A stretch of DNA of 64,000 bases from Octopus vulgaris (lineage: Eukaryota), in assembly GCA_951406725.2 (NCBI GenBank), contig OX597819.1:90272001-90336000 (forward strand), read 5' to 3'. Shown one piece after another: positions 28,627 to 63,407 of this stretch. Each line of letters opens with the position of its first letter. The stretch's first letter is position 1. The translations under genes and the position numbers were made by a program. The notes under the pieces are model-generated. The model was not told the origin of the DNA and searched no databases. It saw nothing but the letters and a program-made list of their open reading frames with translations.

Positions 28627-28658
28627 TGGTCCTAAACGTGACAGTGGCGTCATTATTG
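28627..28658 (+). CDS. CPNE: Copine (CPNE5/8/9-like) microexon, 32 nt, (x)GPKRDSGVII(V)
   Basis: Acceptor TTTCATTAATTTCAG, donor GTAAGT; retains CpGs; phase 2 to phase 1; joins in frame with 63379-63407 to give a G-x-I-I-[LV]-x-A-E-E-L-x-x-C-[KR] copine linker motif. Confidence 0.72.
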
Positions 28659-28889
28659 GTAAGTGACTTTTTTTTTCGCTTCGTACAGCTTTTCGCTTCC
28701 TAATTTACTTACATGAAATATCTTTTTAAAAATTCATTTCTTATCGAATTTAAGAATCCATCTTCACATATTTTTTAATTCAATTATTATAGTTTAATAT
28801 TTTGCTACAACATTATGGTTATTTTGTAATAAGTCTTTTTTTTCCTTGTAACTTTCATAACTTTATTCAACCCTCACAATTTATTCCTA

Positions 28890-29965
28890 ACTCCAGCTGC
28901 CATGACCAACCCGTAGATGATGGCTTGTGGGTGGATGTTATCCACCTTGACTCCGCAAAAGCCTTTAACTCTGTGTCACACAGACAACTTATGGCAAAGC
29001 TCTCTGAAACAGACATAAAGGTTAATCTTTATAATTGGTTGAAGTCTTTCATACTTAGTTGAAAAGAGTTACTCACAGTACTGGGACACGCTTCTGCACC
29101 TTATGCAATGCCAGGGATTTGTTTTTTGTCCCCTCTTATTTGTTTCATACATTAAAGAAATAGATGCCTGTGTTAAAATATGCAGATGGTTTTAAGTTGT
29201 GCCCAAGGTAAAAAGAATGGATACTATACATAATAGATTTTTCTTGCAATCTGGACTAAGCACAATACAATGCAGCAATGGATTGCTGACTACCAAATTA
29301 AGATGGCTGTAGACAGGTGCATCACTATGTATTTTGGGAGGAAACTTATCTGCTCCCTCCACAACACTAATCTTAAGAAGTCTGCTGGTGAGCATGACCT
29401 ATGAATTATTGTTTACAATGATCTATGTTAAACAAGCTATATTTCTAAAATCACCAAAAAGGCCAAAGGTATCTAAGCATCATTCAGTAAGACTTTTGTC
29501 AGTAATTCACCAGTTATGTATTTAAAGCTGTATATGGATATGGTGCATCCACTCTTACAGTTTGCATCTTATATCAGAAACCCCCATCTTGTCCAGAATA
29601 TCGATCTACTGGGAGCTGTACAGAGACATACAGTCAAACAAATGCCTCTGTCAATCACTAACCATATTTTGAATGTATTACTTCTCTGGGCACAGTTTCA
29701 GCATCTAGTTATTGACTTGTTAGAAACCCACAAGATTATCCACCATCCTTCCAACAACTTCAGTTGCCTTTTTTAATTCAGTATCTCTACCACCTGTAAA
29801 GATGTATATAAAATCAAAACAGTGCAGCACCCATGACTTTTGAGGGCATTTTTTCACACCTAGAATTGTTGAGGCATAGAATAAATTGCTCGCATCAATT
29901 GCTAGCTTCAGGACACTGCACCTTTCAAAGTTTCAATGCTTCCCAAAATTCACCAACACTACTAC
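28890..29965 (+). mobile_element. CR1-type LINE RT pseudogene (3' portion)
   Basis: VDVIHLDSAKAFNSVSHRQLMAKL and LKLYMDMVHPLLQFASYIRNPHLVQNIDLLGAVQR (degenerate LYxxxVRPxLEY...W-N-P...LExVQR). Confidence 0.85.
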
Positions 29966-30049
29966 TAACATGCCTATGCACCCTTTCCTCTTTATGACTC
30001 CTTAAATGTTCACTTTTCTATCTTTTTTGTGCTTTATTCTGTGCACATA

Positions 30050-30461
30050 CTCTTTTACTCTTTTCAGTCATTTGACTGTGGCCATGCTGGAGCACCACCT
30101 TTAGTCGAGCAAATCGATCCCAGGACTTATTCTTTGTAAGCCTAGTACTTATTCTATCGGTTTCTTTTTGCTGAACTGCTATGTTACAGGGACATAAACA
30201 CACCAGTATTGGCTGTCAAGCGATATTGGGGGAACAAACACAGACACACAAACATATACACACATACATTTATATACACATATATTTACACATATATATG
30301 TGTGTGTGTGTATGTTTCCATCTACAAAATCCACTCACAAGCCTTTGGTCAGCCCGAGGCTATAGTAGAAGACGCTTGCTCAAGGTGCCACCCAGTGGGA
30401 TTGAACCCAGGACCATGTGGTTCGTAAGCAAGTTACTTACCACACAGCTGCTCCTATGCCT
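30050..30461 (-). mobile_element. Family A SINE, full length
   Basis: Reverse complement of the 1131-1541 pattern. Confidence 0.85.
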
Positions 30462-31198
30462 ATACTTCTAACCTTCAACACTGGCTTTCTTTACTTGGCA
30501 ACTAGTGTTGGTTCAGTAGTGTACTCATGACTTCACAGTTCAGCAGAAGAGATGGATATAGTAAGTGACAGACTTAAAACAAATTAGAACTATGGTCGAT
30601 TTCTTTAACTATATTCTTCAAGGTGATGTCCTTGCATAGCTACACTCCAATGACTGTAACAAGTAAAAAGAAAAATTTTATTTTAAATGAGAGTGATTGT
30701 TAAAAGCAGAGACATTTATTGTTCAAATATAACATTATGCTACAATGAGATAAATGCTTTTAGTCTCTAAAATCTATTTTAAAATCTAATTACAACTCAA
30801 TATTAGGCTAAATTCAGAATGCATTGAAAGATTTGGGTCTTCAAACACGTGACATATATTTCAATTAGAAAAGGTGTCTTTTGGGGAGAATTTTAGCTAG
30901 TGTATAAGTCTGTCCTGATTTCAGATAAATTCATTTTCTAATTTTTTTTTTTTAAATAAAAGAGGTGTCTGATAGATATTGACATTGTAAATAATGATTA
31001 CAGCTTGCTCACATTTAAAGAAATTTCTGTGTTGTGTTAATGGCAGCCTCGTGTCTAAACATTGGCTCTCAGAAATACAGATGATCATTAGGTCTAAGTC
31101 ATGGGCTTGTCATTAACACTTTTATAATTGCTTTCTCTTATAAGAAAGGTGTAATTGTTGTGTAGGTCAGTCCTGATTTATCATCACTTGCATGGCCA

Positions 31199-31433
31199 TT
31201 AACCCTCTAACTGCAAAATTAAATTTCACAATTATTTCAGTAATAATGCTAAAAATCTACCAAAAATTAGAATTGATGTTTTCTGCAATAAACTTGACAT
31301 AACTCAACAAAAAATAATTTCAAACATGACATTCCTTAACAAAAGATGGATTGGTTTAATAAACCTACTTTTCACAGTTGAGAGTAATGAAATTTTGAAT
31401 AGAGAGATCTAATTTCTGCAATAACAGTGTTAA
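31199..31433. mobile_element. TTAA-flanked MITE (piggyBac-like)
   Basis: TTAACCCTCTAACTGCAAAATT at the left end and AATTTCTGCAATAACAGTGTTAA at the right end are imperfect inverted termini. Confidence 0.45.
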
Positions 31434-33200
31434 TCATGTATTAAAGTTTGCTTTGCAACTACAACATTCCATGTTTGATTCCACTGGAAAACATCTTGAG
31501 CCAGTGTTTACTATTATGATTGTAGTCCAAGAAAGACAGTTCTGCAATTTCTTGCTAAACAACCTTCACAAATGATTTGTTTATAGAGATCAAATGTGTG
31601 TATGTGCTGTACATTAGCTCACCCTCCATCAAATTGGTGTTGTCTAAATGTGTTGAAGTGATCACAGAGTAACATGAGATGAAGTGTTTTGCTCAAGAAC
31701 AGCACCTAGCCCAGAAATTTAAACTACAATCTTGTGATTGTGAGAGCAACACCTTAACCACTAGGCCATGCACATTTGTGTTTACTACAAAAGTGTTAGG
31801 TTAACCTTTATCGTGTTGGTGAAATTTAGTAAATGGTAAAATGTGCAAAATCCTGTTGTATGTATGTATGTATGTATCCATCCATCCATCTATTCATCAT
31901 TCATTTATTGGTTTTATATTGATAACATAACAGCAAGAAAACAGAAAAAAAAAGTAGGGGTGGTTTAACAAAGTTCTTTGTTAGATTTGTTCTGCCTCAA
32001 GTTACTCTCACCATCAGCATTGCAGTGAACTAGTGATTGGTTTGTTAGAAACTCTTAACCTATGATGTCATGGTTCAATAATTGCAACAAAATATTTTTT
32101 TAAATATGTGTTCCAGCCATGGCCAGTCAATGTTTTTATCAGGCACAGTACACTAACCAACTCATTACCCAGTGTATGTCTTTTTTTTTTCTAAGACTGA
32201 TGGGTGTGATTTGAGGAACGTTTGGCTGTTATTTCTAGCAAATCAAGCGGCTTCAAATAAGTTCTGTCATTGGATTGTCAGAAAAATTTGTTGCAGTGTC
32301 TTTATTTTGGAAATTACTTCAGATGTGTTTCTGTTTAGTATCGGCCAAATTTTTTTCATGAATAGTCAATGGGGCTAGTAAGATGCTAAACAACTCAGAA
32401 TCATGTCTTGACCGTAAGCCTTACAGTCATTATATCAATTACCCTCAATTTACCTTGGTAAAATTAGAGATAAGTGGTTAATAGAGGTAGAGATGGGATT
32501 TAGCTGTAAAATCACTTGTTCCAAAAGATTAATACACAAAGTTTTCGGTTTTAATATTGTATTCTAGTTTAGAAAATGAACATTAAAGATATCTTAAGAA
32601 GTCTTGATTATGAAAGCTGATTATGGTTTCTGAAAAGAAATATTAATTATAAAGAGTTCTCTGATGAAACCAACAAAATTAAACTTAATGAAAATAGTAG
32701 ACCTACTACAAAGAAATGTATACTCATTGTTCTATTCTTGTATTGGTTTCAATTTTCAGGACGGAATTGATTGAGGTAGATTTTCTAATTTAGATGTGCT
32801 TCCCATTGCCAGTCTTCACCTGTTTCCAAGCAATGTTATATTTTCATACAGCTAGACATGTTTTTCATGACAGACAAGAAATTAACAACCTTGCTTGTAT
32901 AATGGTAATGCTTAACCATCACATAATGCCTAAATAAGGGTCCATACAAGCACACACACAAGCTTACACACACACATACATCATACATGCAACATAGTTT
33001 TTTCAGTTTCTGTCTACCAAATCCAACACAAAGTTTTGGTCACCCTGGCACTATAGTAGAAGGTTTTCTACAGAAATTATTTCCAGCACTGATTTTTTGT
33101 TACAATGTTTCATATCCAAGATGTCAGAAGTAAACAAACAATGAAAAGAGCAAGATTCTTAATCACCCATCCACATCTGCACCTACATACATGTGTATAT

Positions 33201-33719
33201 AGGCACAAGCATGGCTGTGTAGTAAGTAGCTTGCTTCCCAAGCACATGGTTCTGAGTTCAGTCCTACTGTGTGGCACCTTGGGCAAGTGTGGAACTATGG
33301 CCTCAGGTCATCCAAAACTTTGTGAGTGGATTTTGGTAGACAGAAACTGAAAGAAGCCCAATGTATATATATATATACAGCTGTAGAAACTCTGCCAGAT
33401 CAAGATTGGAGCCTGGTACAGCCATCTGGTTCGCCAGTCCTCAGTCAAATCGTCCAACCCATGCTACCATGGAAAGTGGACGTTAAATGATGATGATGAT
33501 GATATTTGTGTGTGTGTCTATGTTTGTCCCCTCTCCACCACTTGACAACTGATGCTGATGTGTTTACATCCCTGTAACTTAGTGGTTTGGTAAGAGATTG
33601 ATTGAATAAGTACTAGGCTTAGAAAGAATAAGTCTTGGGGTCACTTTCTACATCTAAGACCCTTTAAGGTGGTGCTCCAGCATAGCCCTAGTCAAATGAC
33701 TGAAGCAAGTAAAAGAATA
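33201..33719 (+). mobile_element. Family A SINE with an RTE-tail fragment inserted in its internal microsatellite
   Basis: Head 33201-33360, RTE tail 33378-33503, family A tail 33515-33719. Confidence 0.75.
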
Positions 33720-35261
33720 TGTATATATATAATCCTTTAGGGTGTACATATTTTTGAATCATTTGAAAATTAATATTTCGTTCATATCTTTGAAAATGTT
33801 TATTGTTTTGTGTTCCAAATTTATATAATGTTTGCATGAATAATATATTTAATTCAGTATAAATTTCAATTGATTTCCTTTGATATTATCAGATTAATGG
33901 CAATTTTACTGAAATTTTTGGAGTGTACATACATCTGTGAGATACTGTATACATCCATCCATACATACATACATACATACATGCATGCATACATGTATAG
34001 ATAGATGCATGCATGGATGGATGCATGCATGCATGGAGAGGAAATTAGTCAGAAGAAATTGTTACACCCAATTCCTGGCCTGTGGTCAATACCTGCAAGG
34101 AAAATATAGATAGAGAGAGAACCAATAAATAGACTTCCATCTAAATCCCTACCACAGAGCAAATTTTACTAAAAGCAACTAAGGACTGGGTGATGTATTG
34201 AACTGAATTATGTATATTTGGCCTACCTCACAATTAGGGAAAGTGGTATTGAGTATGGAGTAAAAAGTGTGTTCAAAATGCAATTGAGTTAACTGGGAAT
34301 CAAAATTGGCTAGCCAATTCCACTTACAGAGCATTTACTCTGACTGTATGGTATTTGAACACCATTAGTGTTACCTCTTTTTCTTTAGTAGTTCTCTCTT
34401 GCGTATATAAAAAGTTAAAATGGATTAAAGAGAAAATTAATCTACTTTCCGTGTTAACATGCACTGACTAGTCTACAAATTTTGTTGTTTTACATTTGAA
34501 TTTCCTTTTGCATGTACATTACAGTGTAATTCAAGTGGATGTCCATTTTGTTTCTTGGGTTTTTTTAACTATATGTGTATAGGCACAGGTGTGGCTGGGT
34601 AGGTAAAAGGTTTGCTTCCCAATCACATGTTTTCAGGTTCAGTTCTGCTGCATAGCATCTTAGACAAATGTTTCTTCTACTATAACCCTGGGCCAATCAA
34701 TGCCTTGTGAGTGGTAGGCCAAAAATGCCAATATCACCACACAGTCCTCCCTCTCCTTTATCATTACCATTGCATTCCCTCTTTCCATCACCTTCTATTC
34801 CTCCCTACCAAATACACACAGAACTGCCCACATACCCCAGTCACCCTTTTGATTAGTAAAAATTAATCAACATCCTTCGGTTATAAATTCATTACTTTCA
34901 ATGTTAGTACCAAATCACCAGAAGAAATGAACACATGAACTATGACCTGCCCGATGTCCATGGATACTATGGACTGTAATCATCCTAGGAATATGGCCTA
35001 TGATCATAAGAAGCATGTGATTTGCGGAAATGCGCATAGTGATACATTAAAATATTTATAAATTCCATTGATGGATTATTATTATTATTACTATATTTAT
35101 CATACATTATATCAGCACAGCTTGGTACAAACCCATAAAACTGCTATTGCAAGTTGGTATCATTAGGTTGTAACTGATATAATAAAATAAGAGCTTTTAT
35201 ATGCCTACTCAAAAACATTCCCCATAAATGAACTTAAAGGAGATATATATATATATATATT

Positions 35262-35745
35262 GTGACCAAGACCTTTGGTGATATGCTCTGCTTAAGAGGA
35301 CTTGTCGAGCCAAGTGCACCCATGTTGGTGGCACATAAAAAAAAGCAACCTTCGAATGTTGGGCCTCATGGAGGCAAAGTGGCTGAGTACCTTTCGAGTG
35401 TTGAGCCTCACAGAGGTAAAGTAGCTGATTTCCTTTCAAGCTTTGGGCCTCATGGAGGCAATGACCAAGACCTTTGGCATTATGTTGTGCTTGAGAAGAC
35501 CCATCAAGCTGAGAAAAATCGCAGTCATAGCAGCTACTGGTGTTACACAAATAGCACCTGTGCCGGTGGCACGTAAAAGCACCCATTACACTTTCGAAGT
35601 GGTCAACATTAGGAAGGGAATCCAGCCATAGAAAACCATGCCAAATCAGACTGGATCCTGGCGCAGCCTTCCAGTGTGCCAGCCCAGTCAAACCATCCAA
35701 CTCATGCCAGCATGGGCAACGGACATTAAATAATGACGATAATTA
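35262..35745 (+). mobile_element. RTE 3' end with ~41-bp tandem repeats derived from the ORF C-terminus
   Basis: Three copies similar to CTTCGA(A/G)TGTTG(G/A)GCCTCA(T/C)(G/A)GAGG(C/T)AAAGT at 35350-35460, followed by the RTE tail. Confidence 0.75.
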
Positions 35746-35806
35746 TGATGATTATATATATATATATATATATAAAACACAAAAGTGGTGGGGTTCCAAC
35801 ACATTT

Positions 35807-35849
<43 letters not shown>

Positions 35850-35873
35850 CATACATACATACATACATACATG

Positions 35874-35911
<38 letters not shown>

Positions 35912-36079
35912 TATATCATGTGATCAGCCAGGCCATCAAATGTTATACATCACTAATCATAATGCATTTAGAATCATTTTTAGTCTTCAGATGATGCCAG
36001 CCTGCTGGCTTGGTGAGCAGGTCAACTTTCTGCCTGGTGAGAAAGCCAGTCCATCACAGCATTACCCTTTTACAACTGC

Positions 36080-36326
36080 ATCCCGTGCACAGATAAGTTT
36101 GAATGCCTATTTCCACTCCTAGACTGATCATACATGTTTCTCTATCTATCTAACTATTTTATCTGATTTCTATCTATTTTGTCTGATTTGTTCATTTCTC
36201 CACTCGTCTGCGATCGACCTTCGTGTATTCGCCATATTGAAACCTGTTTCCTTTAATACACTTCCGCCTTCTCCAAAAATCCCTCTTCCGGACAACTTTT
36301 TACTTAAAAGGCAACCCACAACATGT

Positions 36327-36375
<49 letters not shown>

Positions 36376-37041
36376 CATCTACCAGCTATATAATCCCGTG
36401 CACAGATAAGTTTGAATGCCTATTTCCACTCCTAGACTGATCATACATGTTTCTCTATCTATCTAACTATTTTATCTGATTTCTATCTATTTTGTCTGAT
36501 TTGTTCATTTCTCCTCTCGTCTATGATCGACCTTCGTGTATCGCGGTGCACCCGCCCTGCCCACCCCCACCACCAATACCGGATATCTCTATTTTTGCTC
36601 CATCTATACCGGATGTCGCTTCTCCCACCACCATTATAGGTGTCTACTCTTCGAACCCCCCTCTTCAATACGCTATTTCACCATGCATTACCCCTCTCTT
36701 GATATCCTACGTTCTACTTGCCTACAACCTGTCATCATTTCTCTGAACCACCCCTCCCCACTGGTGCTCCCCTATATTCCTGCACCCCCCCCCCCACATA
36801 AAAAGCACCATCCGAACATGGCCGATGCCAGACCCCTCTGGCACCTGTGCAGGTGGCACGTAAAAAGCACCCACTACACTTGCGGAGTGGTTGGCGTTAG
36901 GAAGGGCATCCAGCTGTAGAAACACTGCCAGACCAGACTAGAGCCTGGGGCAGTCCCTAGCTCCCCAGACCCCGGTCGAAACCGTCCAACCCGTGCTAGC
37001 GCGGAAAACGGACGTTAAACGATGATGATGATGATGATGAT
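36080..37041 (+). mobile_element. Young RTE-tailed non-autonomous element with a 149-bp 5' duplication
   Basis: 36080-36228 and 36393-36541 differ at about 3 positions. Body matches 24933-25976; tail ends GGACGTTAAACGATGATG. Confidence 0.7.
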
Positions 37042-37269
37042 GGACTAGAGCAATGTGAAATGAAGTGTTTTTGCTCAAGAACACAACATGCAGCTTGATC
37101 CAGGAATACAACTCCCTAACCACTAGGCCATGTGCCTTCACTGTGTGTGTGTGTGTGTGTATGTATTAAAATACATTAAAATATTTATAAATTCCATCTT
37201 TGAATTATTATTATTGTTATTATTTGTATTATTATTATTATTAGTAGTAGTAGTAGTAGTAGTATCATA

Positions 37270-37652
37270 GATGTCACACAGTATACAATATCATGAGGTT
37301 GTTGAGGATATTGTATCTGCAGGGGGTTTGTACTGTTTGTCAAGTCACAACAAGGCCCTCAGTCAGACTGTACTTTGCGCAATATGCATGCTGTTCCAAG
37401 TAGTGCCGACTTTTGCAATACATCTAGATTGTAGGGTATCTCTTAGGTTTTCAGAAGTTTTTTGCAGATTGGATGGTATTGAACCCAATGCTCCGATGAC
37501 AATAGGGATAACCTTTATGTTTAACTCTTGTAGCTGCACATCTTAGTGATCTCAGTTCTCGGGTCTCTATATTTATCAATTTTTTCCCTTTCATGATATG
37601 TTGATTTCCTGGTACTGCTACATCGATTATTAGGCATTCTTTGTCCCTACTG
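37270..37652 (-). mobile_element. R4/Dong-like non-LTR retrotransposon 3' remnant (restriction-like endonuclease)
   Basis: Minus translation CLIIDVAVPGNQHI...IDKYRD..TEITKM...KVIPIVIGALGSIP...LQKSALLGTACILRKV. (ATT)n/(AGT)n repeats on both sides. Confidence 0.85.
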
Positions 37653-37949
37653 AATTATTGTTATTATTATTATTATCATCATCATCATCATCATCATTAT
37701 ATAAGGCGGAATCATTAGCTTGCCAAACAAAATGTTTAGAGGCATTTTGTCCATCTTTATGTTCTCAGTTCAAATTCTGCTGAGGTCACCATCATTGCAA
37801 GCAATGTCCTTCACTTTGTCTGTCTTTACATTCTGAGTTCAACTTTGCCTTTCATCCTTTTGGGGCAGTAAATCAAGTACCAGTTGAGCACTTGTGTCAA
37901 TGTAATCAACTAGTCCCCTTCTCCAAAATTTCTGGCCTTGTGCCTATAG

Positions 37950-37988
<39 letters not shown>

Positions 37989-38017
37989 TGTATGTATCTG
38001 TGGCTCAGTGGTTAGGC

Positions 38018-38346
38018 ATGTGGCTCAGTGGTTAGAGCGTCGAGCTTACGATCGTGAGGTTGTGAGCTTGAATCCCGGACCGGGCTGCGTGTTGTGTTCT
38101 TGAGCAAGACACTTTATTTCACGTTGCTCCAGTTCACTCAGCTGTAGAAATGAGTTGCGACGTCACAGGTGCCAAGCTGTATCGGCCCTTGCCTTTCCCT
38201 TGGACAACATCGGTGATGTGGAGAGGGGAGGCCGGTATGCATGGGCGACTGCTGGTCTTCCATAAAACAACCTTGCCCAGACTTGTGCCTCAGAGGGTAA
38301 CTCTCTAGGTGCAAACCCATGGTCAGTGTCTGACCGAAGGGGGTCA
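38018..38346 (+). mobile_element. Family B SINE, young (CpG-rich)
   Basis: TGGCTCAGTGGTTAGAGCGTCG...GAATCCCGGACC; the first ~16 nt are duplicated at 37999-38015. Confidence 0.88.
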
Positions 38347-39539
38347 CCATGTATCTGTATATGCTACTGTCTCCTTTCCTTGACATCTCATGATAGTTGT
38401 AAATGAGTGTCATCATGCATGCAATGTCCTTCATTTCCAATCTTCCATGAAAACATGACTGGATTAGGGTAATCATTATCTTACTTGGAAACAGATTAGA
38501 GTTGGCAACAGGAAGGGCATCCAACCATAGAAAATTTATCTCACCAAATTCTATCCAACCCATGCAAGAATAGAAAAGAGAACATTAAATTATGATGATG
38601 TATCCTTGCACCAGACAGAAGTCAAATCCATTTTTATTGTTTTCTTATATAATAAACAATGATTCATTAATCCAGAAGCTTAATTGATCAGTTTTATCCA
38701 CATTCTTATATTATAAGAAATACCATTTGTTTTAACTTATATGTACACACACACATACACAATGAACATCTTTAAGTTTCTGTCTACCAAACACATTCAC
38801 AAGGCTTTGATCAGCCTGGGGCTATAGTAGAAGACATTTGCCCATGGTGTTACACACTGGAACTGAACCTGAAACTACATGGTTAGGAAGAAGAAGTAAG
38901 CTTCTTAACAACATACCCACATCAGCACCTATGTTATTTAATCAATAAGTACAAATGAGCAACTTTTTATCAGTCTCATATTAGTTGTGAATCTGAGACA
39001 TTTCTGGAATCTTTAATTAACCCAACTACTCTAACACAACTGTACTACTACAACCACTACCAACACCAACACCATCTCTTCTACTACTGATTAGGAGGGA
39101 ACTCCACATGTGAAACATGTTAAGTCTAAACTTCTTTGATGTCGTATTTATTAGACTCTGCTTATATCTTTATATATTGATTATTACATAATTGTTAATT
39201 ACAAACAGCATAAAGAGGAAGAAAATAATGTTCATCCCTCCTATTAATAAATTATTCTTATTTTCATTAATAATAATAAAAATAAAAGCAAACCATCATT
39301 TAACTGTATATCTCCCTTCAGCTTCATCATCCTTAGTTATAGACTTATCAGTTATGTATGAGTATGTATGTCCTTGCATGCATGCACATAGACACACATA
39401 TGTGAATATATATTGTTTAAATGGAATGCGTTTCCAATAATGGTGAAACAGTTAACTTAATACTCTAATAATATATATTTACTCAGCATAATTTATTGAG
39501 GACTCTTCTTTGAGCATTATACCATGTCATTCATAATAA

Positions 39540-39720
39540 CAATTTCAGAAGCTTTACATATATAACCATATGACTACAAACATGCTGTTTGTGAAATTTT
39601 TCATTCTCTGGACTTTTATGTTTTTCTTTCTGATGAAGAGCTATGCTCAAAATGTTAAAAACCTACTCTTCATTCTACTTTTCCAAAGCATTAAACTAAT
39701 ACATTCCATCCTCTTGTTGT
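39540..39720 (+). mobile_element. PLE 3' remnant with degenerate HHR
   Basis: ISEALHI (GIY-YIG end) at ~39542-39562. CTGATGA-A-GAGC-TAT-GCTC-AAAATGTTA (39630-39657) equals GAAACGTTA after two CpG transitions. Confidence 0.6.
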
Positions 39721-39784
39721 TTTGTTTTTAGCTGTTTTTAATGTTCAATTGTTTGTTCAAGTTTTAATATTCAATTTGACTATA

Positions 39785-42707: not shown

Positions 42708-42744
<37 letters not shown>

Positions 42745-46565: not shown

Positions 46566-46621
<56 letters not shown>

Positions 46622-49844: not shown

Positions 49845-50504
49845 ATTATTAACTCTCCTCATATCTCCTCACCAGTACCAATGCATAAGTTTTATCTTCT
49901 ATGTATTTAATTCTTGGTCACTTTCTCAACTGATTTATACCTTACTTTACTAGTTCACATCACCTACTCTGTACTTCTTCAAAATTTTGTGTTTTTCACC
50001 AGTTACCACAGATTCTCCATGGTTTCTTTACACTGCTGCAAGTTCAGAAATTTTTTATGGAATGAAAATATTTCTATCAGCTGTGTCAACAATGCTCATT
50101 GTCATTTCTTAATCTTTTTGTTACCATATTTCTGTTGAAATACATTTCTTTTGTTCCACTTATATTTTGAAAACAATGGAAATTTTTGTAAAAATGCTGT
50201 CATTGTCAAGCTATTGCTTGGAACATAAATCAATATGAAATTTTGATAAAAGATTTAATCTAAGTCATTTTAAAATAGGATGTTTGTATCATAGAACCAG
50301 TCTTCTGGTGAATTAGTGACAAAAGGGTTACACATATTTCTTGCTGTTAAAAACAAATGTTTTTACAGGATTTTTTTTAAATTTCTACTGAAGTCTAAAA
50401 TATTTAATAGGATTGCATAACTGTAATTTCTAATTTATTTTATTTGCAACGTCTTCATATTTTGAAGAAAAATATTTCTGACTTTCTATAAGGACAAATT
50501 TCCA

Positions 50505-50700
50505 TTAACCCTTTTGTTACCATATTTCTGTTAAAATGTAGTCATTATTTCAATTAAATTTGAAAATGTGGAAGAATGCATTAAAATAACTTTATTATTA
50601 AGCTGTTGTTTGAAACATAAATTAGCATGAAATTTTGATGGGAGGAATATCAAGACATAATAACAGATGTTATTGCTAGGATTGTAGCAAATAGGGTTGA
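50505..50700. mobile_element. piggyBac-like MITE family (TTAACCCTT...AAGGGTTAA)
   Basis: Related copies at ~8400-8780, 13089-13250, 50109-50331 and 56507-56711. Confidence 0.6.
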
Positions 50701-52388
50701 TGATGCTAGTTAATGTGACAAAAACTAGTTACACTGAATTATAGTATCTCTGGAAGTAAGATAATAAAATTCTAACCACATAATCATAAGCTACAGCTAT
50801 TGTCACACTGAGAGAACCGCAATTACCTTGCTTGCCTCTGTTTCACTGACAGTTGATACCACTCCTACACTATGGTCAAGTGAAAGCATCCCCAGGACTA
50901 TTTCCACAGTGTAAGGCCTTCTCATATCTAAATGTGTTAGATATGACTTTACACAAATATATTTTATTCATTCAACACTGCTTCATGTGACTATTTATTT
51001 AATTATTGCTTGACCAAACCCTCTGCATATCAGCATATGTACCATATTCTGTTCTAGTAAGAATGAATTTGCTCTTATCAAGCCGTGAAAAACAGATTTG
51101 ATGTTCATAGGTGATAAAGTGAAAGGACAGAAACACATGCGTCTCATGATCCAATATCATTCACAGTCCAGTATGTGCTTTCACACAGGTCTAAGAAGAG
51201 AATTTTCTCCCAGGACTATTTCCACAGTGGAAGGTTGTCTTCCAAATGCACTTGAACATATTATGTATGACCTTACTCTACTAAAATTTTTAGCATTGTC
51301 ATGTGACCATTGACTGATGCTTATTTTGTCAACACCAGAAAAATTTAAAGTAAAAACCACCTTGGTGAGATCTAAACGTAACATAAAGGGATGTAACTAA
51401 ATACCACAAGGAATTTTATCTGCCTTCTTTTATTCCACCATAAACCATCCTACAGGAGTGTGTGTAGATTCAATAGAAGGCTAAAATTGTTTTATTAATA
51501 TAGATATGTCCAAACATATGAACACTATTCCATTTGTACTACCATGAAAATAACAATGAAAAAGTGTTTCAAAATCTCTTATTTACATTTTGATTGTTAC
51601 CATATCATACTGTTTAATTAATCTCATGTTCTATCTGTCTAATGTAGTGGTGTTCTGACAGTGAAACATCTTACAGTAGACCTATACTATAATCTATACA
51701 TTATCAATCAATATTTGTGTTCGTCATCACCATCACTGGTCTAGTGTTTATTTTCCTATATTGGCAGTGTTTAGACAGGTCTGTAACAAAACATATTCCT
51801 TCCACACATCTTCTACCTTGCATTATCTATTCTTCTTCAACACTGACATCAGTTTTGTGTTTGTTGGCAATATTTAGACAGTTCTATAAAACATATCTCT
51901 TCTACATATTGTCATATTATCTGTAAAGTATAACTCCCTGCCTCACCCCATACTGTATCTTTTGTTGTTATCTATTCTATTTAGGATGCACTGCCAATGC
52001 ACTTTTATGCCATTACTATTTCTGTATTTTCTACAGTATTTATGTACATAATATTTCTTTTATCTCCTTTAACCTATTGTGTCATAGTGGTGCCACATAT
52101 GATATTTGACATCAAATAATGTTATCTTGAACTGATTGGACTACTAGAGTTCATTACTCTCCAAACTAAGCCATATGCTTGGTACTACAACAAGCCACCA
52201 ATATATAAAAATAATATAAACCCAAGAATATATTATAAAAAAAGGACACTATAATTCTTACAAAAACACTAATCAACAGAATTATAATTCTTTATCACAG
52301 AGTTTGAATTAAAACAATCAACATTCTAATTAATAGAAATATTTATATTTCTAAGTCTCTCTAAAGGAGACTATGGCAGCAGTACTGG

Positions 52389-52614
52389 ATATTGATAGTT
52401 ATCGCCAAGCTAACATGGCAGTCCAGAAAAATAGGATAAATGCTGCCGTTGATTAGCTCCAAGAGGCCATCGCCTCTAGCTAGCTATGTGATACATGAAC
52501 CTGTGTCAATTATAACATGTTCGAAGGTTATAATGGACACATGGAGCTAATCAATGGCAGCATTCGTCCTATTTTTCTGGACTGCCATGTTAGCTTGGCG
52601 ATAGCTATTAATAT
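52389..52614. mobile_element. MITE-like fold-back with ~73-bp inverted arms and an internal hairpin
   Basis: 52389-52461 vs 52542-52614 are near-perfect reverse complements; internal hairpin TGTGTCAATTATAAC / GTTATAATGGACACA. Confidence 0.85.
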
Positions 52615-53881
52615 TCTAATTAATGAAAACCCTAAAGAAAAAAACTCTTACCAATACCCTATCAAAAAGTAAAAATCACTTTAATCTATGAATTTCAATG
52701 TTATTATTTCACTCTTGTGGTAAAACTTGTCAATTCTACAATTCACATATTTCTTACAGCTGTGAACTGTACCTCCTTATTTATGCATGACTAACTGACA
52801 CATTGAATGCTAAGTGACTTTGGAAGATATACACTTGAGATAGGCCTTTACACTATCAACCTGTCATCCAGTATATTGACATTCCAGCAACTCAGTCAGT
52901 TGTTAATCTACATACTGCAAATATTTAACAACAGGCCAGCCCAGATTGAACAGCTTTGTAATCACAGGCATTCCACCTCTTATTAAGTGTACACAAGACT
53001 ACTTTCTGCAATGTGTTCTTTGCTTTTAAAGACAGTAGCATATAATTTGTGTAAGACTAGCTACTATTTCTTATAGGTTGAGTAACCATGTAGATGCTCC
53101 CTCATTGGTTTGTGTTATTGTGTATTATCAGTTAAAAAAATGTAGCATTGGTTTTACAAAGCAAATAATATAATGTTCAGTACAATGTATATTGATATCT
53201 ATCACATGCTACTGACGTCATCTCAAATGATAATGGTGATATAAGGTCACACATTTTGGGGAGGATATCATTGATTACATTATTCCCAGTATTTGATTGA
53301 TAGTAATAGTCTTTCTTTCTACTATAGGCACAAGACCTGAAATTTTGTGGGGAGCTAGCTAGTTAATTACATAGAACCCAGTGCTCCACTGGTGCTTATT
53401 TCATCAACCCCCAAAAAGATGAAAGGCAAGTTGACCTTAGTGAGATTTGAATTCAGAACATAAAGACAGACGAAATGCTGCTAAGCATTTTGTCCAGCAG
53501 ACTAACAGTTTTGCTACTTACCACCTTCCATGATTAACAGTAATATTAATTTCAAACTTTAGCACAAGGCCAGCAATTTCAAGGATGTCCATGCTTGTTT
53601 TTAAACTTTTAGTTAGCCGTTGTTTCATATGTTCTTTGTATTATAAAGCTTTCCTTTCAAAAGTCTCAAGTTACTCTGGTGATTGAAAAATATTGGGTGT
53701 GTATATAATACATGATGCCTGGAAGCCAGGGAAATATATCCTGTCTATCAAATGTGATACTAAGCTTGGGCAAAGGGTTAAAATATCAAGCTTATTAATA
53801 CAAAACAGTACTGCTTGCCACTGATTGTACTTACTAACTCCATTTGCTCTAGTAATGATATTTTAATTCTATTTTAAAGAC

Positions 53882-54123
53882 TTATTGCCTCTGCTTTAGC
53901 AAAGGCAGAGGTATTGTTTTCAGTTGTGTTTGTTTGTTTGTCCGTGGACAAGATATCTCAAGAACCACTGGATGGATTCGGATGAAACTTTCAGAGATGT
54001 TTGGTCTTATGACTACCACAAACTGATTAGATTTTGGGATCAATCTGGTACCAGACAAGAATAATTCTGGGTTATTTTCCGTGTTTTTTACTTAATTTTT
54101 GAGAGCAGTCAGGTTCATTTTAG
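53882..54123 (+). mobile_element. Helentron-associated (HINE/DINE-1-like) element, 5' part
   Basis: TTATTGCCTCTGCTT-TAGCA-AAGGCAGAGGTA 5' hairpin, (GTTT)n tract, then GGATGGATTCGGATGAAACTTT core. Confidence 0.65.
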
Positions 54124-54891
54124 TGAGATCAAACCAGGAATTGTGTGGTTCCAAAGCAAGCCTCCTAATCAGACAGCTATACTGGTTAAACAATATTATT
54201 TTAGGAAAGAGTATGAGAACTTACTGCCTTTATAAGTCTACCTTTCTTTGAAGCATTCGTAATGAAAATGAGGTAAAAAAATACTCAGTTGTAATCAAGA
54301 ATTAAAGCTTAATTTCTGATTCAATATGTCTAGAACTTACTGCCTTTCTACAGTGCCCACCAATGTTTTCATAATAAAAAAGAAGCAGCTACAAGTGATA
54401 ACATAATCTTTTTCACTCTAGGCACAAGGCCCGAAATTTTGGGGGAGGGGCCCAGTTGATTAGATCGACCCCAGTACACAACTGCTATTTAATTTATCAA
54501 CCCCAAAAGGATGAAAGGCAAAGTCAACCTCAGCAGAATTTGAATTCAGAACATAAAAACAGATAAAATACTGCTAAGTATTTTGCCCGGCATGCTAACA
54601 TTTCTGCCATCTCGCTGCCTTACATGTGTTAATATAATGCCATGCTAACCATGATGAGGTTTGGTACCAAATGCTGAATCTTTCTATTTTGATTGCAAAT
54701 AATTCTCTTGCAATTTGGATTGATTGAACCAGCTAAACTTAATGTGTGTGAAAAATAACAGCAGTTTTTATAGCTGCTATAGTTACAGAAACATAAGAAT
54801 AATACATCATGGAAACCCAACATATTTCTACAGCAAGAACTAATGCACATTCCTGATGAGCTATGTGTTAGCATTCTCTATGAATTGTTAT

Positions 54892-55229
54892 CTGAGACCC
54901 CTTCGGTCACGACACAGACCATGGGATTGCACCTAGAAAGTTACCCTCCCAGGCACAGTCCGGGCAAGGTTGTTTATGGAAGACCAGCAGTCGCCCATGC
55001 ATACCAGCCTCCCCTCTCTACGCCACCTGTGTTATCTAAGGGAAAGGCAACGGCTGATACAGCTTGGCACCTGTGACGTTGCAACTCATTTCTACAGCTG
55101 AGTGAACTGGAGCAACGTGAAATAAAGTGTCTTGCTCAAGAACACAACACACAGCCTGGTCCGGGATTCAAGCTCACAACCTCACGATCATAAGCTCAAC
55201 GCTCTAACCACTGAGCCATGCGCCTTCAC
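54892..55229 (-). mobile_element. Family B SINE with 12-bp TSD
   Basis: ATGAATTGTTAT at 54880-54891 and 55230-55241. Confidence 0.9.
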
Positions 55230-58200
55230 ATGAATTGTTATAGAATTATAATAATGACAATGATTAAGATGATTGTGTTAGTTATAGCAGTAGCAACAAC
55301 AACAACTATAATATTCGAATATAACATTTACTGCTTCTGGGTTCAATCCCACTGCATGGTACTTCAGGCCAGTATCTTCTGCTATTGCCCTAGGCTGACC
55401 AAAGCCTTGTGAGTGAATTTCATAGACAGAATCTGATAGAAACCCATCGTGTGTGTGTGTGTGTGTGTGTATTTGTGCCTCCTTGTCTTGAAATCATATG
55501 ATGGTTGTAAAATGATTGTTACTCTCATACAAGCAGTGTCATTCATTTCCAATATTCTACAAAAACATGTCTGACTATGGGGAAATATTACCTTGTTTAG
55601 AAACAAGTGAGGGTTAGCGAAAGGAAAGGCATCTGGCTGTAGAAAATCTACCCCAGTACTCTGCCCAACCCTTGTAAGCATAGAAAAGTAGACATTAAAA
55701 TGATGATGATGATGATGATGATTTCTTCATACTGACCAATACAAAATTTGTCAGTGCCCCAGTGAAGGAACTGCTACATGGTTGCTGAGCCTGCTAGAAA
55801 TAACAATGTAATATCCCTCAGATCACACACTAGCACCTTTTTTAAAGGCAGTAAAATGTGATATTAGACTGCTACTTTTTTTCTTTTTCTTTTTATAAGA
55901 AAGGGAATATTACACAATATACTTTTAGATATACTATTTAAAGAAAACTATGGGCGTGATAATCGTCAGAACAGCACCTTCTACTATATGTGTGTACACA
56001 CACACACATACACACACACACACATATGCATGCACACATACATATATATATATATACACATACAATGGGCTTCTTTCAGTTTCCTTCTACCAAATCTACT
56101 CACAAGGATTTATCAGCTCAAGGCTATAGTAGATGACACTTGCTTGAGATACCATGTGATGGGACTGAACCTGAAACCATGTGGTTGAGAAGCACACATT
56201 TTACCTCACAGTGATGCCAGTATGTCTGTATTAATATATTATTGTGGACTGGACACATACATAAGGTATCCAGTGTGTCAGTCTTAATCATACATTTGTT
56301 CAGTGTTGTAATTGCTATAATTGGCATGTCTTTTGCCATTTTAAAGACATCAGCTGGTTAAGTAACTTCATTGAAACACTTTAATCTACTCTTATTATGA
56401 TAACAGTAACAAAGGGTTTTTTTTTTTTTAGACAAGTTATCTCCTCACATTCAGAAAACAGAAAATTTAGATGTAATGTTAATAATTTTTCCAAAGACAT
56501 CAGTGGTTAACCCTTTTGTTTAGCCTGTCTAACATCTCTGGTTCTATGATACAAATGCACTGTTTCAAAGTGATCTAAATTAAAACTTTCCATAAAAATT
56601 CCTTGTTAATTTATATTCCAAATGCCTGCTTAATAACGACAAATTTATTTTGCTAAATTCTAAAATATTTTCAAAATTAATTGAAACAAAGGCAGGTAAC
56701 AAAACGGTTAAAGTAAAACTGTTCCATCAAGGGTGTTATTATTGCTGTGGCACTGATTTTTATTATGGTTTATAGGAACCTTATGAACAGTCTCAAGAAG
56801 TTTGAAATGTAGCTTGATAATGTAAGATATTGAGGTGAATTTCTTGACTCTAAAAAAAGCCTTTTTTTTCTTTTTTCTTTCACATAGCAAGATGCTAAAG
56901 AAGGGCATTAAATAATTAAGGTTTATTGCATCTTGATATTTAGCAATCTGATACTGGCAGAACAACAATGAAATGCTGAATAAATGAAAGAAATTATAAT
57001 CCTTTCTCCTCTAGATACAGTGCTTGAAATTTTGGTCGTTGGGTAGTCAATTAGTCAACTGGTATTTATTTTATCAACTCTACAAAGGATGAAAGACAAA
57101 GTCGACCTCAGTGGAATTTGAACTCAGAACTTAAATCTGGACAAAGTGTTGCTAAGCATTTTGTCTGTTGTACTAACAATTCTGCCAACAAAGGGTTATA
57201 ATAATAATAATAATCCTAATTGTTAGATTAACTATTAATTTTAAATATCAATTTTCCACTTAAGCATGGAAGCATCTTAATAAAAACAAATGTGTAGCAA
57301 AAAATATAAACTTTGCTAATACAACCTTTATAGAAATTTACCTTTGCAGTTTTAGTTTTTTAAGGTTTTCTTTTCACCATTTACCATTTGAAAGAATTCC
57401 CTGAATATCTTGTGGCAGTGTTCTTTCACTCCAAGCACTTAACATAATTGAACTTGAAGAATTTGTTGTGCTGTAATCATCCATAGTCCATCATAATCTT
57501 AAACAAGTTAATCAAATCATCCTATTTCCTGAAGCACTATGTGCCTGGTTTATTATTCAGACACGAAATAAAATTGCATTTTGTCAGTTACTCTGTAAAT
57601 GCCTTATGAAAATATTTCCTCTTACAGTCACAAGTTCAACCTCCAGCATTAATCTCTTAAAATATCCTCTCTCATGCACATCGCATAATGGTATCATAAA
57701 AGATAGCGTGTTAGGAGAATAGAAGAAGAATTCTTTACAGGGTGTCAGTCAAATGCAAGCTTAAAGTTGAAACAGTTTAAAATTTCTATAAATGGGGATA
57801 TGATCTGACTGTAGGTCATGTTGAAGTCAATTCGTTTCATTAAGAGGCTTCAGAAAACATTGTCCATTTGATATCAAGGATTTCTTTTTACATAACCTGA
57901 GTTACTGTTATTTATTCTTATAAAGTTATATTGAATTACACTCATTTAGACAATCATGATTTATCTTGATCTAGGATATAAAAAAAGAAGACCAAACACC
58001 GGTGTGACTCTGTGATTAGAAGTTTGTTTCCCAATCATATAGTTCTGGGTTCAGTCCCATTGCATGGCACCTTGGGCAAGTATCTTTGACTACAGTCCCA
58101 AGCCGGCCGAAGGCTTGTGAATGGATTTGACAAACTGAATGAAATTCATTGAAGTTCATCGTATGTATTTGTGCCCCTGACTAGCTCCCATGCTGGTGAC

Positions 58201-58828
58201 ATGTAAAAAGCACACATTACGCCCTTGGAGTGGTTGGCATTAGGAAGGGCATCCAGCTGTAGAAACCTTGCCGGATCAGATTGAAGCATGATACAATCTA
58301 TTGGCTGGCCAGTCCTCAGTCAAACCGTCCAACCCATACCAGCATGGAAAACAGATGTTAAACGATGATAATGATGATGATACATAGGTGGAGGGGGAGG
58401 AGTTACTGCCTCCTTGCTTTGGCATCACATGAGGATTGTAAACAAGTGTTACTATCATACAAGAAGTGTCTTTCATTTCCAGTCTTCTAAAACAACTTTG
58501 GTTACAGGGAAATATTACCTTACTTGCAAACAGGTGAGAGTTGGCAACAGGAAAGGCAAGTGACAATAAAAAAATCCATTTCAACAAATTTGTTTCACCC
58601 ATGCAAGCATAGAAAAGTGGACGTTGAAACAATAATGATGATGATGATGATAATGACCATTTTATAATGGTGCTATTCTAAAACTACCAGATGATAACTT
58701 GGAAACTTACTATAAGCCTTAAATAGCGTAGTTCCATTGATAATTTGATAATTTTTCGTGAATAAGATGGTTACTGAAAACATCCAACAAAGGAGAGTTA
58801 GCAGTCTTCACACATAAATGTAAATATG

Positions 58829-59211
58829 GTTAGCACTCTGTCGGTTACAACGATGAGGGTTCCAGTTGATCCGATCAATGGAACAGCCTGCTCATGAAAT
58901 TAATGTGCAAGTGGCTGAGCACTCCACAGACACATGTACCCTTAATGTAGTTCTCAAGGAGATTCAGCGTGACACAGAGTGTGACAAGGCTGGCCCTTTG
59001 AAATACAGGTACAACAAAAATAGGAAGAAAGAGTGAGAGAAAGTTGTGGTGAAAGAGTACAGCAGGGTTCGCCACCATCCACTGCCAGAGCCTTGTGGAA
59101 CTTTAGGTGTTTTCACTCAATAAACACTCACAACGCTCAGTCTGGGAATCGAAACCGCAATCCTACGACTGCGAGTCCACTGCCCTAACCACTGGGCCAT
59201 TGCACCTCCAC
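58829..59211 (-). mobile_element. tRNA-derived SINE, family D1 (possibly Ceph-SINE-related)
   Basis: Head GGAGGTGCAATGGCCCAGTGGTTAGGGCAG...GGTTTCGATTCCC; approximate TSD AAAT(G/A)TAAATAT. Confidence 0.75.
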
Positions 59212-59254
59212 AAATATAAATATACCGATGCATCAATTGCAAGATGATCAAAAG

Positions 59255-59495
59255 TAATGGTTTTCAACCAGGCTTGTGGGCCATATGGCCATTTTGTTGC
59301 TAAAATTTATGTGCAATAAATTGGTTATAATTCTACAGTGCACAAAATATTTTTTTTATACAGTTCCTAATAATATTTAATTATAAAAATACAGCAGGAT
59401 TTTTCTTTTAATATACATTGAATGGTTATGAAGGTCCAGTAAAGTAAAATAGGAATCAAAGGGGTCCATAAGCAAAAAATTGTTGGGAACCACTG
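59255..59495. mobile_element. hAT-type MITE, same family as 47204-47554 in opposite orientation
   Basis: TAATGGTTTTCAACC / GTTGGGAACCACTG termini; 8-bp flanks ATCAAAAG / ATCTTAAG. Confidence 0.7.
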
Positions 59496-59703
59496 ATCTT
59501 AAGTATGACCTTCTCCATTGTGATGTACTTTATGACAATCTGGAAAGGACTGACTACCAATTAGAAGACTGAAAAACATGGCAAATATGCATGTGCTTTC
59601 ATTCAAGCTGTCCAAATCCTTCTAAACTTCCAGAGAAAAATTACTTACATACTGGAACTTTCTAAATAACTGCTACAATTTTCAAATAATTAAAATTATA
59701 TAT

Positions 59704-60050
59704 TGTTGGCATCCTTTTGTCTCGGGAGACAATGGAGTTGCGCATAAACTAATCCAGTCTAGTTTTTACATTTCATGTCCTCTCCAGTTTTGCGCAGGCC
59801 TGGGCTAGATGTAACAAAATCCTGGGTAGCCCAATCATCAGGTTTCCTCTCTCGATCTTGCTGACATAATCCAAGAGAATGCAGAGCATTACGTTTGGCA
59901 CCAGCTTGGTTGCAGGAGCTGCCGGAAGAGTGTCGAGTCGAACACTAAACTGCCTATGGGGCTCCACTCCAGATTTTTGTGAAGGTTGTCTCCATTGTGT
60001 AACCCTGGATAGGGGCCCACACTGGGTACTGTCAGCCGGAGCCAGCTAAA
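59704..60050. mobile_element. GC-richer interspersed repeat, possibly LINE-UTR- or SINE-derived
   Basis: Abrupt composition shift; TTGGCATCC..TGTCTCGGGAGACAATGGAG and CGTTTGGCACCAGCTTGG motifs look retroposon-like. Family not identified. Confidence 0.4.
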
Positions 60051-60264
60051 AAGATAGCTAAGAGTGATATTTCAAAGCCCAGCTTCAGGAACTTAAAATT
60101 TTATATATAGTGTGTTGTTAAGATCAACTACATTTCTTGTATCATCATTCATGATTTGACAACCTCTATCTACATTTAATTTATTTCCCTTTATTGTTGG
60201 ATATAATTTGTCAAATCCATGTTCGTATGAAAAATGGATGTTGAAAGAAGCTGATACTGCTGCT

Positions 60265-60620
60265 TTGTTTGTCTGTTTGTTGAGCGCCTGGGAGAAGTCC
60301 AAGACATGGTCCTTTGCTGTTCGTAAGACCCACAGAAGAGAAAGCAGGTCAACCCCCGACACAGAGAGCATCGATGGATGAATGCGCATCCAGGCTCAGC
60401 AGTTGCGTAGGAAGTTAGGGACAAGAAACAGGAAGAAAGAGTGAGAGAAAGTTGGAGCGAAAGAGTACAACAGGAGTCGTCACCACCCCCTGCCAGAACC
60501 TCATGGAGCTTTAGGTGTTTTTGCTCAATAAACACACACACAACACCCAGTCTGGGAATCGAAACCATGATTCTCAGATCGCAAGTCCACTGCCCTAACC
60601 ACTGGGCCATTGTGCCTCCT
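60265..60620 (-). mobile_element. tRNA-derived SINE, family D2 (same head as D1, different tail)
   Basis: 60430-60620 aligns with 59020-59210; sequences are unrelated beyond CTCTTTCTTCCT. Confidence 0.8.
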
Positions 60621-60669
60621 GCTACTGCTGCTGATGATGATGGCAACTACAATGACAACAATTATTGTT

Positions 60670-60965
60670 GTTGTTGTTGTTATATGCTATTTTGCAGGTG
60701 ATGTTGTCTTATGGTTTGGTGAAAGTAAATCACCTCAAATCTCAAAAATCTTTCCTTGGATTCTTGCAGAATACAAGACACCACTCTTCTACTAGTGAAC
60801 AAAGTGTGTCTCAGTTCCATTATCATCAGCCTCTTGGGTAGCAGTTTGGACGTCAAGCCAAGTGCACCAATTGCCACTGGAACAACTGTTACCTCTCTCT
60901 TCCCCAATCCCTTAATTTTTCTTGTTTGACCCTGAAATTTTGAAATTTTCTCCATTTCTTTTGTA
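60670..60965 (-). mobile_element. Second, older R4/Dong-like RLE remnant
   Basis: REVTVVPVAIGALGLTSKLL motif; ends in an (AAC)n/(AAT)n tail. Confidence 0.6.
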
Positions 60966-63178
60966 ACCACACTATTATCATATGATATTGCAGAGTCTAT
61001 GAGCTTACAATTTTTTTTTCCCCATTTGGTCCTCTACAATCATATTTGGTCTCCGTGTTTCAATAATATGGTTAGTTTTATGCAGAAATCCCATAAAATC
61101 GTGTTATTAATCACCATCACTGCCTCTAACTCATACCACTTTTATGTCACTTTAAATCTACTCATGCCTTCTTTTACCAATATTGTCACATCTACACTTG
61201 GTAAATTTTTTTGTGTTAGCTTACATAAGAGATGGTTATATTTTGATCTCTTTTTGAATTTAGAAATTCCTCAAGTTTTCTTTTTTATGTTTGCTGTGAA
61301 TTATGACATGTGTGTTCCCTTAACCTTAAGTTTTTTTCTTTTCTCTATATTAACTCTGTAAGGCTCAAAACTTAGTCTATACCTTTTCTTTGTTATGTGT
61401 GTAAAGTGCCATGTTTATGTGTGTGCATGTATGTATGTATAGATACATGTGTGTATTCATAAATATACACATACACACACATTTATGAATTTATGTTGCA
61501 AGATTCCTGATGTGAAGTCATGTGTTGAAACAGATATTGTTTATTTCAGGATGGTCATTTTTTTTTTTGCCAAATAAGCACACACCCTTTATATTTGTTC
61601 TTCACTCATTTATTACTATTCTTATTTTAACTCATGTCCATTGTCTGGAAATCTTTCGTCACACATTTGTAAGTTCCTCAGTGACACTTTCCATCACTAA
61701 TCCTTACCTATTTTTAAATATGGTAAAACTTCCCCATGACCAGACACGTCTTGGAAGATAGGAAATGAAGGATACTGCTTGCATGACAGTGACACTTGTT
61801 TACTACTACCACATGATCTCAAGTCAAGAAGACAGAGATGCACTCACACAAATATGCATACATGCACCCAACCAACACACACACACATACATACATTTTT
61901 AAATATACTTGGGCTTTTTTCAACTTTTGTCTACCAGATTCACTCACAAAGCTTTGGTCAACCTGGGGCTATAGTAGAAAACATTTACCCAAGGTGTCAA
62001 ACTGTGGGATTGAACCCAAAATCAAGTGGTTGAGAAGCAAACTTTTTACAACACAACTAAACCTGTGCTTGTTGAATAAATACACATGCTCCTTTTTATA
62101 ACTCAACTGTTAGAAGTAAGGTCATTTGGTTAAATAAGAGAATTTATCTAATGTATAAACTAAACCACGCATGTAGATCATCATCATCATCATCGTTTAA
62201 CGTCCGCTTTCCATGCTGGCATGGGTTGGACGATTTGACTGAGGACTGGCGAACCAGATGGCTGCACCAGACTCTAATCCGATCTGACAGAGTTTCTACA
62301 GCTGGATGCCCTTCCTGACACCAACCACTTCGAGACTGTAGTGGGTGCTTTTACGTGCCACCAGCATGAAGGCCAGTCAAGTGGTACTGGCAACGGCAAC
62401 GCTCAAATGGTGCTTTTTATGTTCCACCTGCACAGGAGCCAGTCCAGTGGCACTGACAACAACCTCGCTCGAATGTTTTTTTTCAAGTGCCTCCAGCACA
62501 AATGCCAGTAAGGCGACGCAGGTACATCATGTAAAAATGGATATAAACAGTAAAAGAAATATCATCAATAATATCTGGCACTGATGACTGAGCATTAACA
62601 ATTCTTTTATACTAAAGTGTATTTTGATCTACTCAAAAACCATTTCTTTGAAACTATAAAAACTGCTTAGTGAGCTGCAAGTTTTCAGGCAAACTATCAT
62701 AAAATATTCAATTTCATAGATTTGTTTTATTACTGTATTTTCTGGCATACAAGTCAACTTAGTATATAGTACAAACATTCAAATGGCTTCACTATCTTTC
62801 CAAATCCTGCTGCATTTCACATGGAATGTTTGGTCTTTCAAAGTTGTTATGGTGCAGAAGTTGACTACTTTTTTTTTTTGCTGGGGCTGTAAATTTTGGT
62901 CTGAAAAATTTGACTTGTAAGCTCGAAAATATGATAATTCTTTCATTTTGAAACTGATACTCTGATTTATGACATTTTTTTTCATTTTGACGAGTGTTAT
63001 CCTTATTAGATTGTAGCTAAAATTATTTGGCTCAGGGGTCTAAATTCAAACACAGAGATTTCTGTACACTGATTGGATTATAATGTTTGAAATAAAAGTG
63101 CAAATGTAGCTAACAATTTACTAGTCTATTATACAGTTATAACTTCAGGTTATTTATTTCAATTCTGAAACTGAACAC

Positions 63179-63209
<31 letters not shown>

Positions 63210-63378
63210 TCTCTTCTGAAGACAAGTCCATGATGGAAATAGAATCCTAAATTGACTATGACTTATGAAATCGAGGGGAAAAAAATTAACAAAAAATAAA
63301 AACTAATTCCTATAAAATCACCTTAAAAGTGATTCTCCTGAGACACAAAATAAACATATTTTATTTTTTTTATTGCAG

Positions 63379-63407
63379 TTAATGCGGAAGAATTATCTTC
63401 ATGTAAA
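63379..63407 (+). CDS. CPNE: Copine (CPNE5/8/9-like) microexon, 29 nt, (V)NAEELSSCK
   Basis: Acceptor TTATTTTTTTTATTGCAG, donor GTAAGT; phase 1 to phase 0; AEELxxC[KR] is the copine inter-C2 linker motif. Confidence 0.75.

Follow-up and report, generated by a model that had tools for sequence, protein, structure and literature searches.

The Octopus vulgaris locus at positions 90,272,001 to 90,336,000 of contig OX597819.1 (64,000 nt, here the window; G000:C6:90272001-90336000) contains two coding exons of 32 and 29 nt that belong to a copine gene and are separated by a 34.7-kb intron. It raises the question of how old this split is and whether both exons are always present in the mRNA. The initial annotation of the locus had described a copine linker exon divided by a lineage-specific intron and had suggested that the resulting microexons might serve as a switch for nonsense-mediated decay (NMD). 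The analysis described here makes a different reading very probable, namely, that the two short coding exons belong to a CPNE5/8/9-type copine and are likely present in all of its normal mRNAs, and that the intron between them is likely ancestral, having been kept in the octopus and lost in vertebrates.

Both exons are found exactly at the predicted places (Table 1). The 32-nt exon is preceded by tttcag and the 29-nt exon by ttgcag, both are followed by gtaagt, and the upstream YAG of each is T-rich. Their phases are compatible, and the joined reading frame is GPKRDSGVIIVNAEELSSCK. As a chance control, GTAAGT sites with a pyrimidine-rich YAG 20 to 40 nt upstream were counted on both strands of the window. 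Such an acceptor accompanies 3 of the 20 GTAAGT sites on the plus strand and none of the 17 on the minus strand, and two of these three are the 32- and 29-nt exons. Short copine queries match the window at E<0.01 only at these two exons, with no further or duplicated copies of either at that threshold.

The flanking copine exons expected by the initial annotation are present on the plus strand, the DFLG exon at G000:C6:90255639 and the LDKKDFFGKSDP exon at C6:90336359, and the exons of the copine domain are located 40 to 52 kb further along the same strand. A homologue search with one of the latter retrieves octopus copine-8 proteins. A 20-exon gene model with GT-AG borders translates exactly to residues 25 to 558 of P0132 (CAI9724562.1, Octopus vulgaris copine-8), in full agreement with the exon borders, phases, and intron length first proposed; exon 1 was not found within the 130 kb of upstream sequence examined. 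At 45.0 kb, another intron of the gene is even longer than the 34.7-kb one. The domain content includes two stretches of PF00168 and a full-length PF07002 above the Pfam cut-off, that is, two C2 domains and the copine vWA domain. The octopus protein shares with the Salmo copine-8 (P0192) 65% identity across 535 residues, the same C2-C2-vWA layout, and the same tree clade. In a FastTree phylogeny that was rooted with a choanoflagellate copine and left out CPNE4/6/7, the octopus gene clusters with vertebrate CPNE5/8/9 and not with CPNE2 (support 0.93). By these comparisons, the gene is identified as a copine-8-like member of the CPNE5/8/9 type, as had been proposed. Calcium-dependent phospholipid binding is known for the copine family (PMC10968396).

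Together, the two exons encode residues 126 to 146. The sequence of the BON1 structure aligns with the octopus copine over residues 17 to 531, and the C2A-C2B linkers of copines consist of just 3 to 6 residues, according to the available text of a 2024 review (PMC10968396). This alignment, the linker lengths, and the C2 topology suggest that the exons would encode the last C2A strand and a short linker. The label "linker exon" is therefore a loose one.

The split is also found elsewhere. Paralog B, the second octopus CPNE5/8/9-type gene (C11), has a 32-nt exon at 3200899 and a 29-nt exon ending before 3203838, in identical phases. Metagenome contigs were scanned with the next exon as the query, and the best 80 of at least 118 confirmed loci were considered. 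The x-A/S-E-E block could be placed, making the locus scorable, in 55 of these; the other 25 were dropped (exon not found in 22, too close to the contig end in 3). In 36 of the 55 scorable loci, an AG with T-rich upstream DNA precedes the block at a distance of exactly 2 nt, versus 2 of 19 in the remainder, and the upstream T fraction is 0.55 in the former versus 0.20 in the latter. In 23 loci, both exons could be called; the 19 distinct pairs among them invariably consist of 32 or 35 nt plus 29 nt, with introns of 101 to 1364 nt.

Taxa were assigned to the metagenome loci by best named hits and FastTree. L089, L090, L096, and L120 are of the stony-coral type (best named hits, Porites at 89% and Oculina at 86%), with L090 and L096 nesting among stony-coral copines. 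L079, L105, and L119 are of the bryozoan type, the first two grouping with Watersipora. About 28 annelid-like loci form two groups of paralogs, which join Capitella with support of 0.90 and 0.89 in a tree that included some of these loci, and L138 is bivalve-like. Named proteins display a one-residue difference exactly at the junction: RefSeq isoforms from Lineus read IILVTAEE or IIFTAEE, and those from Watersipora read IVAVSSEE or IVVSSEE. Matching these isoform pairs, tandem NAGNAG acceptors, which lengthen the product by one residue, are found at the 29-nt exon in L079, L082, L083, L098, L105, L107, and L108; the acceptor of the octopus 29-nt exon has no tandem NAGNAG.

Since paralog B as well as the coral-, bryozoan-, and annelid-like loci have the same phase-1 intron, it likely predates the cnidarian-bilaterian split. 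Unless every one of these loci has been assigned to the wrong taxon, an octopus-specific gain is ruled out by their same-position intron. Nor is there any realistic chance of a gain in cephalopods as a whole: its sole support would be the contrast that a single fish-like locus presents, and the intron occurs in the bivalve-like locus as well and is implied by the named nemertean and bryozoan isoforms. The idea of a lineage-specific split has to be abandoned, and the initial annotation had itself recognized that a wide distribution of the intron in bilaterians would remove its novelty.

Six genomic loci lack the intron. The fish-like, CPNE8-like L076 has a single 64-nt exon of phase 2 to 0, as the initial annotation had stated for vertebrates, with neighboring introns as in the octopus; the vertebrate-type exon thus differs from the invertebrate pair of 32 (35) plus 29 nt but has the same outer phases. 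L109, possibly chordate-like (weak support of 0.69), has an unsplit 61-nt exon. The other four, L073, L078, L080, and L081, are also missing the next intron; as that intron is present in both the fish-like and the coral-like loci, this group is one that loses introns. A further 13 scorable loci have no intron nearby and may be transcripts or intron-poor genes, and the site is irregular in the gene models of Capitella (P0031) and Trichoplax (P0168). The unsplit genomic loci (fish-like, possibly chordate-like, and one further invertebrate group), together with the unclear state in Trichoplax, would suit a history in which vertebrates retain the ancestral unsplit exon and several invertebrate lineages gained the intron separately at one proto-splice site. 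This history appears very improbable, as corals and both lophotrochozoan paralog groups would have had to gain the intron at exactly the same base, and the further invertebrate group is an intron-losing one. The simplest history, instead, would place the intron in the cnidarian-bilaterian ancestor, followed by its likely loss on the vertebrate (or chordate) line and a separate loss in the group of L073, L078, L080, and L081. The same intron measures 0.1 to 1.4 kb in other animals, 2.9 kb in paralog B, and 34.7 kb here, a size that it may have reached through general intron expansion in a 2.8-Gb genome.

Among the near-identical coral-type loci, L120 (4402-4430) has the split intron and is without the next intron of L090 (7422-7590), possibly owing to a mixed DNA/RNA assembly. 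In both L073 (2930-3161) and L080 (3842-4057), the YxILLILTDG exon of the vWA domain occurs in two versions arranged in tandem, which look mutually exclusive. A scan of prokaryote genomes produced one match only, L151, which was judged to be due to chance.

Evidence of splicing comes from contigs of four runs, presumed by guess to represent RNA and unlabeled for tissue, and from proteins. The 29-nt exon is spliced onto the next exon (GT..AG, 951 nt removed) in contigs of three of the four runs, from three studies; run X9 did not extend to this joint. The 32/29 junction is supported by annotated and transcript-derived proteins. Fifteen of the 17 cephalopod proteins examined span the site, and all 15 contain the joined peptide, including 7 that are known solely from 2- to 6-kb Logan contigs. 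The peptide is thus seen in O. vulgaris, O. sinensis, O. bimaculoides, Argonauta, and one more named cephalopod-type protein pair, which we take, from its accession series, to be from Sepia, as well as in the 7 Logan-only sequences. Both donors are GTAAGT and the acceptors are T-rich, and such strong splice sites suggest that inclusion would be constitutive, in parallel to the constitutive microexons of mouse. The presence of both exons in every normal mRNA is likely.

In run X1, low-depth contigs extend from both exons into the 951-nt intron (L051:384-753 and 1021-1388) and may represent unspliced RNA, intron retention, or DNA. The intron after the first C2B exon contains a dispersed repeat (L051:1810-2045) that is highly abundant in each of the four.

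According to a rival explanation of very low probability, skipping of either exon or of the pair is regulated and would tune copine levels through NMD. The initial annotation was right that skipping creates early stops: these follow residue 126 when the 32-nt exon is skipped, residue 149 when the 29-nt exon is skipped, and residue 169 when both are, with the last junction 1060, 994, and 902 nt further downstream, respectively. Small exons flanked by 30- to 35-kb introns are plausible skipping targets, and one O. bimaculoides model (P0001) begins directly after the 29-nt exon. However, 15 of the 19 mapped internal exons have lengths that are not multiples of three, so that their skipping shifts the frame, and 14 of these 15 yield early stops of the same kind; a skip-induced stop is therefore not special to the two exons. 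Likewise, skipping either exon places a stop more than 50 nt upstream of the last junction, the criterion for alternative splicing coupled to NMD, and the same holds for 14 of those 15. Also at odds with a switch are the GTAAGT donors of both exons, the origin of the sole GT-AG joint into the next exon, among the joints listed, from the 29-nt exon (three of four runs), and the unchanged length of the exon pair, from coral to octopus, within a conserved protein core. Skipped forms were seen neither in the proteins nor in contigs of the four runs, although such contigs cannot show absence. The proposed NMD switch is thus unsupported.

Comparison with known microexon classes points the same way. 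In mouse, constitutive microexons have strong sites, and neural ones have weak sites and preserve the frame, as described in the available text of one study (PMC7821500). The octopus exons resemble the constitutive short exons of that work in shortness, consensus donors, and presence in all proteins seen, but the 32-nt exon exceeds its 30-nt limit. Neural microexons under SRRM3/4 are given as 3 to 27 nt in the accessible parts of two papers (PMC13174390, PMC8378409). Like these, the octopus exons are short and belong to a gene with long introns whose product is a calcium-dependent membrane protein; they differ in being longer than 27 nt and not multiples of three, in their strong sites, and in their presence in corals. 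At 32 and 29 nt, both fall outside the 3- to 27-nt range, and the 29-nt exon alone fits a looser limit of 30 nt; with frame-shifting lengths and GTAAGT donors, neither is a weak-site, frame-preserving exon. Microexons of the SRRM3/4 type have a UGC enhancer shortly upstream of the acceptor. In the octopus, TGC is found at -39 of the 32-nt exon and only within the acceptor of the 29-nt exon, in a comparison with just six other small exons.

Several points weigh against the conclusion that these are constitutive exons separated by an ancestral intron. The 36 positive loci are not independent, as about 28 come from annelid-like animals, and sequence is the only basis for their taxonomic assignment. 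For vertebrates, the unsplit state is represented by one fish-like locus in addition to background knowledge, the six intronless genomic loci leave room for several independent gains at a G/G-like site, and the deep tree nodes are weak. In addition, protein collections are blind to frameshifted skip forms, and contigs drop rare variants.

The junction directly before the 32-nt exon is itself variable. The 573-residue isoforms of O. sinensis and O. bimaculoides have 15 additional residues ahead of this exon, and an optional in-frame 45-nt exon of phase 2 to 2 is found at G000:C6:90270694-90270738 (L018:8694-8738), 1.3 kb before the window. Pairs of isoforms that differ by an insert at this junction are also found in another cephalopod (P0123/P0124, 14 residues), the nemertean Lineus (7 residues), the tick Ornithodoros (17 residues), and CPNE9 of the teleost Coregonus (22 residues). 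The inserts are mutually unlike apart from the final Gly, and their status as exons is seen in DNA for the octopus only. No insert was seen in the coral, anemone, bivalve, and gastropod clusters examined. In paralog B, one weak 60-nt candidate for an optional exon at the cassette position was set aside as unsupported.

A second peculiarity of the site concerns the copine subfamilies. Octopus paralogs C and D (G000:C20:42389636 and 56032893 region) group with vertebrate CPNE2 (support 0.85). In both, a 75-nt exon ends in phase 0 directly before the codon that is split in phase 1 by the intron of the gene in the window and paralog B. Two Xenopus CPNE2 forms that differ by a 25-residue block (P0260, P0261) imply the same phase-0 intron position. 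The introns of the CPNE5/8/9 and CPNE2 types are therefore one base apart, with the CPNE2-type intron upstream. The 1-nt offset could stem either from a slide by a single base or from two gains at the same site. Near intron pairs and intron sliding are described, in the available text of one study, within Drosophila orthologues, where shifts by multiples of three are favored (PMC2891723). The likeness lies in the intron of CPNE1/2/3-type genes being one base further upstream at the same codon and in the tandem acceptors of some species; here, however, the shift is 1 nt and separates ancient paralog subfamilies. Because the offset is not a multiple of three, the criteria of that study, as far as its text is available, leave the choice between a slide and two gains unsettled.

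A broader proposal, possible but rather doubtful, is that the junction before the 32-nt exon is a bilaterian-old splicing hotspot. Optional, in-frame, unrelated inserts of 7 to 22 residues ending in Gly near the end of C2A, as in cephalopods, the nemertean, the tick, and the teleost, might tune membrane or partner binding of copines in a tissue-specific, probably neural, manner; the 1-nt offset between CPNE5/8/9 and CPNE2 would be a frozen single-base slide predating the cnidarian-bilaterian split.

Table 1. Features of the window on the copine gene (positions are those of the window)
Feature	Positions	Strand	Remark
3' portion of 29.9-kb intron (optional 45-nt exon to 32-nt exon)	1..28626	+	
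32-nt coding exon, phase 2 to 1: last base of His126, GPKRDSGVII, first base of Val137	28627..28658	+	Peptide in 15/15 covering cephalopod proteins
GT-AG intron, 34,720 nt, phase 1, within the Val137 codon	28659..63378	+	Position common to coral-, bryozoan-, and annelid-like loci and paralog B
29-nt coding exon, phase 1 to 0: remainder of Val137, NAEELSSCK	63379..63407	+	Joined to next exon in 3/4 runs
5' portion of 951-nt intron before the first C2B exon (G000:C6:90336359-90336462, directly beyond the window)	63408..64000	+	

Apart from these features, the window contains 8 stop-to-stop frames of at least 170 aa, mostly simple repeats; the sole such frame in the 34.7-kb intron is 177 aa long. 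An Rfam scan of the window gave 0 matches, so no nested RNA gene was found. The search for recursive splice sites in the 34.7-kb intron gave one weak candidate on the sense strand and one on the opposite strand and thus no signal. Elsewhere on C6, the product of an intron-poor gene on the minus strand (G000:C6:109403468-109408057) has a hydrophobic stretch at its N terminus and a copine vWA domain, with no C2 domain in the frames listed; it may be RGLG-like.

The two exons are already included in public octopus gene models, and the loss of an old intron in one lineage is a familiar event. No publication was found on the history of this intron or on the insert, in a search that left subscription literature mostly outside. 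The available text of a bioRxiv comparative-splicing study does not mention copine or CPNE, but its supplements could list the gene. The effect of alternative splicing on copine function is called unclear in section 2.1 of the 2024 review (PMC10968396). If the insert is indeed tissue-regulated in four phyla, it would provide a testable handle on the role of splicing in copine function. The intron itself is a usable marker of copine gene history, and its distribution cautions against taking the vertebrate gene as the ancestral yardstick.

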